Shown: positions 2,910 to 6,227 of the stretch, in pieces
How positions within the stretch are numbered: the stretch's first letter is position 1
How the letters are laid out: each line of letters starts with the position of its first letter
Source: a virus
Taxonomy: Duplodnaviria; Heunggongvirae; Uroviricota; Caudoviricetes
Virus record (IMG/VR): IMGVR_UViG_2609460332_000001
Direction: 5' to 3' (one strand)
DNA length: 24,516 nucleotides
Notes under the pieces: model-generated
What the model was told of the DNA's origin: nothing
The model's input: only the letters and a program-made list of their open reading frames with translations
The model's database searches: none
Made by a program: the position numbers and the translations under genes

Positions 2910-3107
2910 GCGACCTTATTATCCATGCGCGGTATTGTCGCCGTATTCCTGCATTAACAGAGACCGCAGCCCGACAGGGAGACTCCTCTGCGCGAGTGTG
3001 CGGGGATAATCAAAAACGATACACACCGGGGTTTACCGCGTTAACGGAGCGCGGCGTTGTCCCCTCATAGTCGCCTGTCCGGTGCGATGGTGGAAGAAAC
3101 CGAACGT

Positions 3108-3308
3108 TCATTTCTCGTTATTTGTCATGCTGGCCGGGCGCAGATGCGTTGCATCTGTTGCCAGCCTTCTCCTGCAGGCTTCAATAACCCACGCTGAAAA
3201 GTTACCGGACCCTTTATGCTCAAGGGCGATGTTGATCTGTTCAATTATGTGATTGGGGAAACGGATATTGCGGGTTGTGGTTCTGCGGGTCCGGTTTTTC
3301 GATGACAT
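3108..3308 (-). CDS. ribbon-helix-helix (Arc/MetJ/CopG-type) DNA-binding protein, 66 aa
   Basis: MSSKNRTRRTTTRNIRFPNHIIEQINIALEHKGSGNFSAWVIEACRRRL... fits the RHH pattern (beta strand RNIRFP, then two helices); RBS AAGGA 7 nt upstream of ATG at 3308; only convincing minus-strand gene in the late operon. ORF track extends to 3368, but the internal start has the RBS. Confidence 0.6.
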   Translation of the reverse strand: MSSKNRTRRTTTRNIRFPNHIIEQINIALEHKGSGNFSAWVIEACRRRLATDATHLRPASMTNNEK

Positions 3309-3349
3309 ATTTATTTCCTTTACTGATTGCCATATGACGGGGATTTTAC

Positions 3350-3715
3350 ATGGCTGAGCTTCGTACACTCCAGAGCAGAATCAAAACACTGAATACCCGA
3401 CGGGTGAATATTCTGAAGGGGGAGCAGCGTCGTGTCAGTGGCAGTGCACGTGTTTCCCTCAAGCGTCATATCTGGCTGAGGGACGCCGGGCAGTGCTGTA
3501 TCTGTGGTCGTGTGGTTGACCTCTGTGACAGTGAACTCGATCACCGAATTGCACTTCAGTTCGGTGGTGGTAATGAGGAGACGAATCTTTGGACGCTCTG
3601 TGCCGAATGCCATCGACAAAAGTCTGCTCGTGAAGCGGCGAGTGGTATGCCGGACCCGACGCTGCCGGAGGTGTCCGGAGGTAGTGGCAGAGAGGACGAC
3701 ATCATCGGACTGTAA
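3350..3715 (+). CDS. HNH endonuclease (packaging-associated)
   Basis: CxxCG...DH...NL..LC..CH..K HNH motif (CCICGRVVDLCDSELDHRIALQFGGGNEETNLWTLCAECHRQK); located directly upstream of cos/terS as in HK97-like cos phages. Confidence 0.85.
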   Translation: MAELRTLQSRIKTLNTRRVNILKGEQRRVSGSARVSLKRHIWLRDAGQCCICGRVVDLCDSELDHRIALQFGGGNEETNLWTLCAECHRQKSAREAASGMPDPTLPEVSGGSGREDDIIGL

Positions 3716-4005
3716 CCCAACCCGGGGGGGGTATCATCCGGCGTAAAAAACGATCGCTTTGGACACCGCGCCCCCTCTCACGCAGAGAAAAAATTCCCGT
3801 TTCAGGGCAGTTAACATGTTAACTGGCTGCCCGGGCATTTTTGCGGTTTTTATCTTTATTATTCAGTTTGTTGTGCGGAAAAAATGTTAACAGGCTTTTT
3901 CAGCAAATGTTAACCAGGCAGCAGTTAACATTTGCGGCATGAGACGCCGGGAAAAATGGGCTGAACCATACCCGGCTGAGTGCGTTCTGGACCCGGGAGG
4001 AGGCT
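3716..4005. promoter_or_regulatory. candidate cos / packaging-initiation region with an array of ATGTTAAC motifs
   Basis: Five GTTAAC cores within 120 bp (3810-3815, 3818-3823, 3886-3891, 3909-3914, 3924-3929) in both orientations, including the 18-bp palindrome CAGTTAACATGTTAACTG; G8 run at 3724-3731; AT-rich; between HNH and terS. Confidence 0.4.
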
Positions 4006-4569
4006 GTGCTGACAACGCAAAAACGAAAATTTGCGCTGGCGCTCATGTCCGGGAAAAACAAAACAGCGTCAGCCATTGCCGCCGGTTATTCGGCGAAGAC
4101 CGCCAGGGTTAAAGGCTCGCAGCTGGCAAAAGATCCTGAGGTGCTTGCGTTTATAGCCCGTAAACAATGCGAGACGGTGGAGGTGGATGAGGTTCCTGTT
4201 TACCGGCAGAAAAAATCAGAGCAGGAGGATAAACCCCGTCGCCGTGAGGCGGCTGCAATACCACAGCCGGACGAAAACAATCTGGAGATGCCACCGTCCG
4301 CGGTGATGTCTCCTGGTATTGAATATATGGAGGATGGTCTTCCCGATCCGGTGAAAGCCATGGGGCGGATCCTGGTGGAAAACCTCTGCATTGATCCGAA
4401 ACTGGCACTGGATGCGGCCTGGCGTCTGGCGCAGTTCACGCACCATAAAAAAGGGGATACCGGGAAAAAATCGGCAAAAGGTGATGCCGCGAAAAAAGCG
4501 GCTAACCGTTTTGCGGTGCCACCGCCCCCCCGACTGGTGGTGAATAACGATAATGAGGGCAACGGATGA
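4006..4569 (+). CDS. terminase small subunit (P27-family-like)
   Basis: GTG start after GGAGGAGG RBS; N-terminal region (KRKFALALMSGKNKTASAIAAGYSAKTARVKGSQLAKDPEV) typical of TerS; ATGA overlap with the next gene. Confidence 0.8.
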   Translation: MLTTQKRKFALALMSGKNKTASAIAAGYSAKTARVKGSQLAKDPEVLAFIARKQCETVEVDEVPVYRQKKSEQEDKPRRREAAAIPQPDENNLEMPPSAVMSPGIEYMEDGLPDPVKAMGRILVENLCIDPKLALDAAWRLAQFTHHKKGDTGKKSAKGDAAKKAANRFAVPPPPRLVVNNDNEGNG

Positions 4570-6227
4570 TACCTGTATGGAGCACAGCCTGCCCGGACTG
4601 GGCAGAGCGCCTGAAAAAGGGGCTGTCGATTATTCCGGATCCGATTTATCCGGACGAGGCCGCACATGCCCTGGCGATTTTTAAACAACTGCGGATTGTG
4701 GATGCACCTGGTAGCCCTACGTTCGGGGAGTCCTGTGCACCGTGGGTGTTTGACCTGGTGGCGGCCCTGTTTGGCTCCTACGATGCGCAGACCGGTGTAC
4801 GCCATATCAAGGAAGTTTTTATCCTTATCCCCAAGAAAAACTCGAAGTCCACGCTGGCCGCGGGGATCATGATGACTGCACTGTTACTGAACTGGCGGCA
4901 GGCGGCGGGTTACACGATTCTGGCCCCGACTGTGGAGGTGGCGGCCAACGCCTTCAACCCTGCCCGGGATATGGTACGACGTGACGATGATCTGGATGAC
5001 CTCTGCCAGGTACAGACCCATATCCGGACCATCACCCACCGAGTGACGGACACCACCCTGAAGGTGGTGGCAGCCGATCCGAATACGGTGTCCGGTATCA
5101 AGTCCGTGGGTACGCTGATTGATGAGTTGTGGCTGTTTGGCAAGCAGTGCAAGGCGGAGGACATGTTACGTGAAGCCATAGGCGGCCTTGCCTCCCGCCC
5201 GGAAGGGTTTGTGGTGTATACGACCACCCAGTCGAATGAACCGCCCGCCGGGGTGTTCAGACAGAAACTGCAGTACGCCCGGGATGTGCGCGACGGCAAA
5301 ATTCATGATCCGCACTTTCTGCCGGTGATATTTGAACACCCTCCTGAAATGGTGGAAAGCGGGACTAACCTGCTGATGGAAAACCTCGCCATGGTCAATC
5401 CGAATCTCGGCTATTCAGTGGATGAGGCCTTTCTGTACCGGGAGTACCGTAAAGCCCGGGAAGCCGGTGAAGAGACATTCCGGGGGTTCATGTCAAAACA
5501 CGCCAATGTGGAAATTGGTCTTGCCCTGCGCTCTGACCGCTGGGCGGGGGCTGATTTCTGGGAAGAGCAGGGCCGTTGTATCAGCCTGGACGATATCCTG
5601 CGTCGTGCTGATGTGGTGACGGTGGGGATTGACGGCGGAGGGCTGGATGATCTGCTGGGGATGTATGTGATTGGGCGTGACCGGGAGACCCGCGAATGGC
5701 TGGGCTGGGGCCATGCCTGGGCGCATGAAACCGCGGTGGTCCGACGGAAGAGCGAGGCGTCCCGGTTTCAGGATCTTGTTGCCTGTGGAGATATGACCAT
5801 TGTCCGGCGTGTCGGGGATGACACGGCGGAAGTGGCGGAATATGTGCGTCGCATTCATGAGGCTGAGTTACTGGACCATATCGGTATTGACCCGTCAGGG
5901 GTGGGGCAGATTCTGGATTCACTGGCGGAAGCCGGGATCCCCGACGGAATTGTGGTGGGGATAAGCCAGGGCTGGAAACTGGGCGGGGCCATTAAAACCA
6001 CCGAGCGCAAACTGGCTGAAGGGGTGCTGGTGCATGGTGACCAGCCCCTGATGGCCTGGTGTGTCGGCAATGCCCGGGTGGAGCCTAAAGGTAACGCCAT
6101 TCTTATCACCAAACAGGCCAGTGGACGGGGAAAAATTGACCCGCTGATGGCGCTGTTCAATGCGGTCTCCCTGATGTCCCTTAACCCGGAACCGAAAAAG
6201 AAAGAATATGCGGTTTTTTTCATATAA
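4566..6227 (+). CDS. terminase large subunit
   Basis: 553 aa; Walker-A-like ILIPKKNSKSTLAAG in the N-terminal ATPase part and a C-terminal nuclease-like domain (VTVGIDGGGLDD); coupled to terS. Confidence 0.9.
   Translation: MIPVWSTACPDWAERLKKGLSIIPDPIYPDEAAHALAIFKQLRIVDAPGSPTFGESCAPWVFDLVAALFGSYDAQTGVRHIKEVFILIPKKNSKSTLAAGIMMTALLLNWRQAAGYTILAPTVEVAANAFNPARDMVRRDDDLDDLCQVQTHIRTITHRVTDTTLKVVAADPNTVSGIKSVGTLIDELWLFGKQCKAEDMLREAIGGLASRPEGFVVYTTTQSNEPPAGVFRQKLQYARDVRDGKIHDPHFLPVIFEHPPEMVESGTNLLMENLAMVNPNLGYSVDEAFLYREYRKAREAGEETFRGFMSKHANVEIGLALRSDRWAGADFWEEQGRCISLDDILRRADVVTVGIDGGGLDDLLGMYVIGRDRETREWLGWGHAWAHETAVVRRKSEASRFQDLVACGDMTIVRRVGDDTAEVAEYVRRIHEAELLDHIGIDPSGVGQILDSLAEAGIPDGIVVGISQGWKLGGAIKTTERKLAEGVLVHGDQPLMAWCVGNARVEPKGNAILITKQASGRGKIDPLMALFNAVSLMSLNPEPKKKEYAVFFI

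Follow-up and report, generated by a model that had tools for sequence, protein, structure and literature searches.

An array of repeats beside the cos site of a common Stx-phage packaging module as a probable small-terminase recognition signal

The cosB element of phage lambda, located between cosN and Nu1, spans ~120 bp and comprises R3, I1, R2 and R1; within one family cosB can be simple (one site) or complex (several sites), a contrast exemplified by N15 and Monarch (PMC4669245). HK97 is the HNH-dependent cos phage studied in most detail, and its small terminase (TerS) reads a single 15-bp site located at +15 to +29 (PMC11331095). Here we describe an array of five ATGTTAAC repeats in the packaging module of many Stx phages, present in a stretch of viral DNA of 24,516 nucleotides (hereafter the window), and propose that the array is likely to be the TerS-recognition part of cos, bound by TerS and functionally equivalent to lambda cosB. 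The kind of signal, cosB-like, is a known one; the array in this common Stx-phage module was previously undescribed. Full-text searches turned up no account of these repeats, and the cos sequence in a single paper.

Like lambda cosB, the array consists of short repeats in both orientations that lie ~30-160 bp in from the left end of the genome, after cosN and ahead of the small-terminase gene, with a conserved A/T-rich IHF-like element (here a candidate) between the first site and the rest. As with lambda, 21 and N15, there are specificity classes in which the repeats and the recognition helix of TerS change together and, as with N15 and Monarch, simple and complex architectures occur in one family, here a single dyad and an array. 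The differences are equally clear. Unlike the winged-helix Nu1 of lambda, the TerS of this module has an SF6/SPP1-type helix-turn-helix (PF03592); the overhangs are, by homology, 10-nt 3' instead of the 12-nt 5' overhangs of lambda; an HNH partner is expected to be required for cutting; and the repeat unit is 8 nt long and built around a palindromic GTTAAC core. Nor is there sequence homology between this cos and lambda cos. With its SF6-type TerS and 10-nt 3' ends, the element is analogous to the lambda-like cos family and not a member of it.

HK97 is closer in organization: it shares the gene order HNH, cos, terS, terL, a 10-nt 3' overhang (here by homology), TerS recognition just downstream of the cut (here putative) and an A-tract after the cut, which in the window reads AGAAAAAATT (PMC11331095). 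The window has the features of an HK97-type cos module, with HNH upstream of cos, terS and terL, a PF03354-type TerL and, by homology, 10-nt 3' ends; its HNH dependence is putative. It differs from HK97 in TerS family, with an unrelated DNA-binding domain, and in having 5-6 dispersed sites out to +155, and we discarded an HK97 gp1-type TerS with a single site as a model because both the family and the multi-site array disagree with it. Given the single site of HK97, a multi-site array is not the rule among HNH-dependent cos phages. The homologous DNA-binding domain (TM 0.84, 30% identity) is found instead in the G1P proteins of SPP1 and SF6 (2cmp, 4zc3, 3zqp), and in both cases a ring-forming TerS is expected to contact several repeated boxes. 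The small terminase of SPP1 acts at a pac site with a pacL/pacR box arrangement. Unlike the phages described here, however, SPP1 and SF6 are headful (pac) phages without cohesive ends and without an HNH partner, and their box sequences are unrelated.

The packaging module and its cos region

A 290-bp spacer (3716-4005) separates the HNH endonuclease gene from terS. The HNH gene (3350-3715, plus strand; PF01844, E 2.7e-7, with RefSeq relatives annotated likewise) is the packaging accessory nuclease of HK97-type cos modules. The small-terminase gene terS (4006-4569, plus strand; PF03592) begins with GTG and is followed by terL, encoding a large terminase with ATPase plus nuclease domains (4566-6227, plus strand; PF03354, PF20441), 3' of which lie a prohead protease/major capsid fusion and then a portal gene. 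In terS homologues an ATG stands in the same alignment column as the GTG at 4006. The HNH-terS-terL block is 93-100% identical to those of the long-tailed lambdoid/Stx phages BP-4795, 2851, 1717 and YYZ-2008 and of many Stx1a/Stx2 prophages, and of 5,426 complete E. coli genomes 1,283 contain the module, some in as many as eight copies. The annotated records mark neither a cos site nor any feature in the spacer.

The position of the cut comes from the Stx1 phage Lys8385Vzw, whose TerL is 97% identical to that of the window and which has the same spacer. PhageTerm mapping of this phage gave the cos CGCCCCCCCT with 3' cohesive ends (PMC7946995), and its record ends in ...CGCCCCCCCT and starts with CTCACGCAGAG (longer termini ...GGACACCGCCCCCCCT and CTCACGCAGAGAAAAAATTCCCG...). 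By homology, cosN of the window is predicted at 3767-3776, with the 10-nt 3' cohesive end CGCGCCCCCT, and the left virion end is predicted to begin at 3777. Independently, the deposited sequence of Burkholderia phage Bcep176 (TerS 38% identical) starts exactly 10 nt before the homologous CTCACGCGCAGAAAA (CTCACGC) box, a terminus that agrees with the cos position taken from Lys8385Vzw. The cos homologue at 3767-3776 places the array between cosN and terS, at the end packaged first: on this map the left genome end is followed by the repeats at +34 to +155 and by the terS start at +230. The terS of Lys8385Vzw itself (MT225100.1, 185-793) is annotated 15 codons too long, from the equivalent of window position 3961; the homologues with an ATG at the window's GTG favour the shorter gene.

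An earlier reading of the window from its sequence alone had suggested that the array lies in a cos region and hinted that a G8 run just past the HNH stop marks cos. The former agrees with the mapped cos of Lys8385Vzw, beside whose homologue the array lies. The G8 run is present at 3724-3731, 9 nt after the stop codon at 3713-3715, but we rejected it as the cut, since the mapped cohesive end falls ~40 bp further right and the run is polymorphic in length among close relatives (G7-G11), although a run of G7-G9 is conserved in every Enterobacterales relative and on the satellite island described below. The DNA left of the cut (3724-3766), comprising the G-run, CGATCGC and GGACACC, is nevertheless conserved across relatives, the G-run and GGACACC in 21 Enterobacterales relatives and the satellite island, and may represent a right-end cos element, with a possible role in termination or in recognition by HNH/TerL; the G-run may itself be such an element. 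Directly right of the cut lies the most conserved cos box, CTCACGCAGAGAAAAAATTCCCGTTTC (3777-3803, plus strand), which is near-invariant in all long- and short-spacer relatives and whose core is kept even in Burkholderia phages. At the other end of the spacer, a variable linker with the terS ribosome-binding site GGGAGGAGG (3932-4005, plus strand) is little conserved between lineages and missing from the island, and on this comparison is outside the conserved signal. We also set aside the cos literature on SfI and SfV as a direct parallel: these phages have a different packaging module (TGCCCGCCCC) and offer only a general precedent for 10-nt ends.

The repeat array, its conservation and its two classes

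Exact-match search finds five copies of ATGTTAAC in the window, all within 3810-3931, three on the plus and two on the minus strand. Sites 1 (3810-3817, minus) and 2 (3816-3823, plus) form a perfect 18-bp palindrome, CAGTTAACATGTTAACTG, at 3808-3825. Sites 3 (3884-3891, plus) and 4 (3907-3914, plus) follow, and site 5 (3924-3931, minus) has a conserved GGCAGC flank at 3916-3921. Sites 4 and 5 form an inverted pair, GCAAATGTTAAC-N9-GTTAACATTTGC (3903-3914 and 3924-3935), and the site 5 region (3917-3931) forms a 15/16-nt inverted repeat with 3816-3831. The GTTAAC core occurs eight times in the window, five of them inside the spacer. Five GTTAAC cores in both orientations, a palindrome and an AT-rich setting had all been noticed in the sequence-only reading and hold up here: the GC content is 39% at 3800-3935 and 28% at 3838-3883, whereas the window averages 55.7%. 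Dinucleotide shuffling reproduced five copies of a single strand-collapsed 8-mer per 290 bp in 16 of 5,000 shuffles and, in the real window, such a density is met only by 290-bp frames that overlap the array region. The core-to-core spacings (8, 68, 23 and 15 bp), with their mixed orientations, are a poor match to a simple helical-phase model.

A T-rich tract ending in ATTCAGTTTGTTG (3838-3873, plus strand, with ATTCAGTTTGTTG at 3861-3873) separates sites 1/2 from sites 3-5 and is a candidate bend or IHF-like site. Within it, ATTCAnnnnGTT is invariant in diverged class A, class B (see below) and island sequences and has a unique match in the window. The IHF consensus is matched with one mismatch at 3861-3873, which is not significant by itself, as the window contains 35 such matches; we therefore rejected an IHF site called from the consensus alone, and it stays a conserved-element hypothesis. 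The match lies ~6 bp from the centre of the 3816-3831/3917-3931 inverted repeat, and a bend site here is plausible because the element is conserved and sits near that centre.

The motif search in related phages that the sequence-only reading had proposed as a check finds the array kept in relatives, diverged lineages included. Of the columns in 3777-4005, 18 vary across 52 unique close spacers, all of them outside the 40 motif bases. In the more diverged long-spacer phages L326/327 (TerS 84% identical) and L168 (65%), the DNA between motifs has strongly diverged; the 8-mers are at homologous places in L326, L168 and the island L336, with the exception of one base of site 2 in L326 (ATGTTAAT). 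L326/327 and L168 have added a sixth GTTAAC and also keep the CTCAYGCAGAGAAAAAATT box, the T-tract with ATTCAnnnnGTT and the GGCAGC flank of site 5.

A second class of loci (class B: L169/170, L321, L322/323, L324, L325, L167 and L333-335) has the long-spacer architecture, with every copy of the motif reading ATGTTTA[TC] (ATGTTTAY) or GTAAACAT and the palindrome becoming ATAAACATGTTTAT; two of these loci, L167 and L325, are contig-end fragments in which the array is covered only in part. Class B occurs in 11 of 5,426 genomes and is rarer than the GTTAAC class (class A), to which most of the loci returned by viral-contig scans with the queries P0023 and P0038 belong. All class B TerS proteins read ...AIEAGYSEKSARCKGS... 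(...KSARC...), while those of class A read ...AI[AT]AGYS[AEG]KTARVKGS... (...KTARV...). Comparison along the full length of TerS leaves columns 25, 32 and 35 as the only ones that separate the classes: GTTAAC goes with A(T)25/T32/V35 and GTTTAY with E25/S32/C35. No class-specific residues were found in the HNH protein.

Residues 1-50 of TerS are modelled by AlphaFold with a pLDDT of 91-96, and the N-terminal 55 residues are predicted to form four helices, 4-14, 19-25, 33-41 and 44-56. Foldseek superposes this domain on SF6 G1P (4zc3) with a TM score of 0.84, an rmsd of 1.6 A and 30% identity, and it is predicted to be an SF6/SPP1-type helix-turn-helix domain. By this superposition, helix 2 ends with residue 25, while residue 32 and residue 35 make up the N-cap and first turn of recognition helix 3. 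The TerS of L321 (P0005) is 89% identical to that of the window and resembles it in the C-terminal part, but its helix, like the motif of the locus, is of class B. The association of motif and helix could partly reflect co-inheritance of one haplotype block, because the motif and the helix codons are only 150-300 bp apart; class B also comprises only few independent lineages. The stronger argument is that, in either class, all five sites share one sequence although they stand apart.

Single-dyad relatives and a terminase-less island

In the Salmonella phage FSL SP-016 (TerS 49% identical), the HNH-terS spacer is only 106 bp and homologous to 3717-3823. The same short spacer is found at 20 Enterobacterales prophage loci (L087-L105, L107) from Atlantibacter, Kluyvera, Serratia, Kosakonia, Enterobacter, Citrobacter, Erwinia, Pantoea and other genera. 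These phages are without the 182-bp segment 3824-4005, and their terS ATG stands exactly at window motif 3816. Their order is G-run ... GGACACCGCGCCCCCT|CTCACGCRCAGAAAAAATYCCC ... GGAGGGTGTAAAC ATG TTA ACA GCN, so that a single imperfect dyad, GT[AT]AAC-RT-GTTAAC, lies over the terS start; the window palindrome (3808-3825) is homologous to this dyad overlapping the start codon in distant relatives. Leu2 is TTA and Thr3 is ACA in 20 of the 21 short-spacer sequences, the exception being L104 (GTG TTT ACG), while other synonymous sites vary, which indicates selection at the nucleotide level. TTA ACA is kept even in GC-rich Burkholderia relatives, including L106.

In the window lineage, the dyad is at an unchanged distance from cos, terS starts 190 bp further on (GTG CTG ACA), and three motif copies have been added to the single-dyad state. 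The single dyad of the distant relatives identifies the array as a derived expansion. A hydrophobic ORF of 24 codons at 3816-3890 (MLTGCPGIFAVFIFIIQFVVRKKC) was set aside as probably not a gene, since it is cut short at 5-14 codons in other lineages; its start is the ancestral terS ATG and its stop the TAA of motif 3. Short-spacer relatives (L087-L103, L004) also carry an extra GT[AT]AAC(AT) ~35 nt left of the cut (GAGTAAACATCGATCGC), where the window has GCGTAAAAAACGATCGC; in these phages, putative TerS sites would thus flank cosN.

The array is also present in an element that has no terminase. E. coli 2021CK-00607 carries a ~10-kb PICI-like island between cspD and clpS (L336/L337; NZ_CP104665.1, 3237340-3247050), encoding an integrase, an HTH regulator, an Icd-like protein, DUF4222, a RepA-family helicase, a YlcI/YnfO protein and a homologue of the prohead-protease/capsid fusion. 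We found no HNH, terS or terL gene in this island. Its end consists of the G-run, GGACACCGCGCCCCCT|CTCACGCAGAGAAAAAATT, five GTTAAC sites arranged as in the window and ATGATTCATCTGGTTG; cosN, the conserved box and the ATTCA..GTT element are kept at an overall identity to the window of 80%. Island-type cos sequences occur in 33 of 5,426 complete E. coli genomes, and E. coli MS6198 is another carrier of the cspD-clpS island. Cos-type SaPIs such as SaPIbov5 (Ccm) carry their helper's cos and a capsid homologue. A capsid gene together with a copy of the helper's cos is likewise typical of Gram-negative PICIs (PMC10111431). The island, and not the window, shares the layout of SaPIbov5 and many Gram-negative PICIs, with a helper-type cos/cosB, a capsid homologue and no terminase; its mobilisation is putative.

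Proposed role, alternatives and significance

The position given by the mapped cos, the footprint of unchanged motifs, their concerted switch with helix-turn-helix residues, the terminase-less satellite and the ancestral dyad together point to TerS recognition. On concatemeric DNA, the N-terminal helix-turn-helix domains of an oligomeric TerS would bind the repeats (+34 to +155), probably assisted by the T-rich, possibly IHF-bent segment between sites 1/2 and 3-5. Bound TerS would anchor TerL, working with the HNH nuclease, on cosN (3767-3776), where staggered nicks would produce the 10-nt 3' cohesive ends; packaging would then run rightwards through terS. We infer TerS binding, the role of bending or IHF and the binding stoichiometry from sequence comparison.

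The sequence-only reading had favoured cosB-type TerS sites in a cos region, which the computational lines above support, and had considered it equally possible that the repeats are operators. The candidate regulator is the divergently transcribed RHH-like DUF3950 (YlcI/YnfO) protein encoded at 3108-3368, which might act through the repeats on late or terminase genes. Its gene lies ~450 bp upstream of the array, its family is predicted to bind DNA, palindromic sites would suit a dimeric repressor, and a YlcI/YnfO family protein is found on the satellite island too, albeit with its gene ~6 kb from the island cos. However, the protein is identical at 65 of 66 positions beside class A and class B arrays and thus does not follow the motif switch; L169, L170 and L328 have the array without a DUF3950 gene next to HNH; and the HNH gene stands between the sites and the RHH gene with its promoter. 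Because the protein is near-identical across motif classes and its gene is missing at some loci, operators for it are the least probable of the explanations considered here, very far from the parity first proposed. A role for TerS or another factor that binds mainly to regulate terS/terL expression, through autoregulation or transcript processing, and not for packaging, is unlikely, if less so. The ancestral dyad does overlap the terS start codon and Shine-Dalgarno region, a weak minus-strand promoter-like match covers sites 3 and 4, and such regulation would be compatible with a packaging role as well. Yet the window array lies 75-190 bp upstream of the actual terS start, and in the spacer we found no intrinsic terminator or terminator-like structure, no Rfam RNA family and, as the only promoter-like match, the weak one just mentioned. 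The island keeps its array with no terminase gene after it, and retention by a terminase-less, packaging-only element argues against a role limited to terS expression.

The array could also be a neutral relic, left by duplication of the terS start (ATG TTA ACA, Met-Leu-Thr) or by a MITE-like insertion with the inverted ends 3816-3831 and 3917-3931. The array is clearly a derived expansion, the 15/16-nt inverted repeat is present, and FSL SP-016 and the 20 other short-spacer sequences, with their terS ATG at motif 3816, lack 3824-4005 altogether. Against a relic, the copies stay unchanged amid diverging DNA, every copy has switched together in class B, and a satellite without terS has retained the array. 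The segment is found at 3,020 places, against 3,025 for an HNH-terS query, that is, essentially at this locus only, which does not fit a dispersed mobile element. We therefore rejected a MITE or IS origin, dispersed copies not having been found in that search; the ISEc20 of PPompW prophages, which lies beside the G-run, was inserted separately. Overall, we regard a neutral origin as very improbable, and TerS recognition remains our preferred reading.

More tentatively, this HNH-dependent family may have evolved a complex cosB of its own, apart from lambda and via dyad duplication, with at least two mutually exclusive specificity alleles (GTTAAC with TerS T32/V35, GTTTAY with S32/C35) that decide which prophages and satellites each terminase packages; we consider this possible, at a little short of even confidence. 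If true, the alleles would sort the up to 6-8 co-resident prophages of EHEC, and PICI-like satellites, by packaging terminase, and would shape Stx-phage recombination and satellite mobilisation. About one in four complete E. coli genomes carries the module, as do many long-tailed Stx1/Stx2 phages, and O157 strains often have several copies; the signal with its specificity determinants offers a testable handle on the cross-packaging of prophages and satellites. Cos vectors and transduction assays for these phages become designable, and cos could be correctly annotated in thousands of prophages. Beside lambda, the locus would give a second and non-homologous example of a family with simple and complex cosB and with co-evolution between recognition helix and site, useful for learning how SF6-type small terminases read DNA.

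Single EHEC genomes, including O157:H7, carry up to 6-8 copies of one cos/cosB/terS module in separate prophages, which makes cross-packaging and recombination at cos possible in principle. In PPompW prophages of O157 (L330, PPompW_699; LC567826.1, 15712-17170), the IS110-family element ISEc20 abuts the G-run, and the lysis genes and the HNH gene are gone, leaving terS and terL without their HNH partner. In Stx2 phage 1717 (NC_011357.1, 33510-36483), terL is interrupted by IS629. In one TerS from E. albertii (P0001), 15 aa of the linker are duplicated (DKPRRREAAAIPQPD). Further downstream in the window, the portal protein (8440-10863, 807 aa) has a long C-terminal extension with a weak match to a carbohydrate-binding module (CBM_5_12) and ~3 tandem repeats of ~47 aa, with the unit IPVPRDGRDYDPDVLQxAVNDAVANIPQPADGKSLTPDDVRPMLEQMVKEAVSH.
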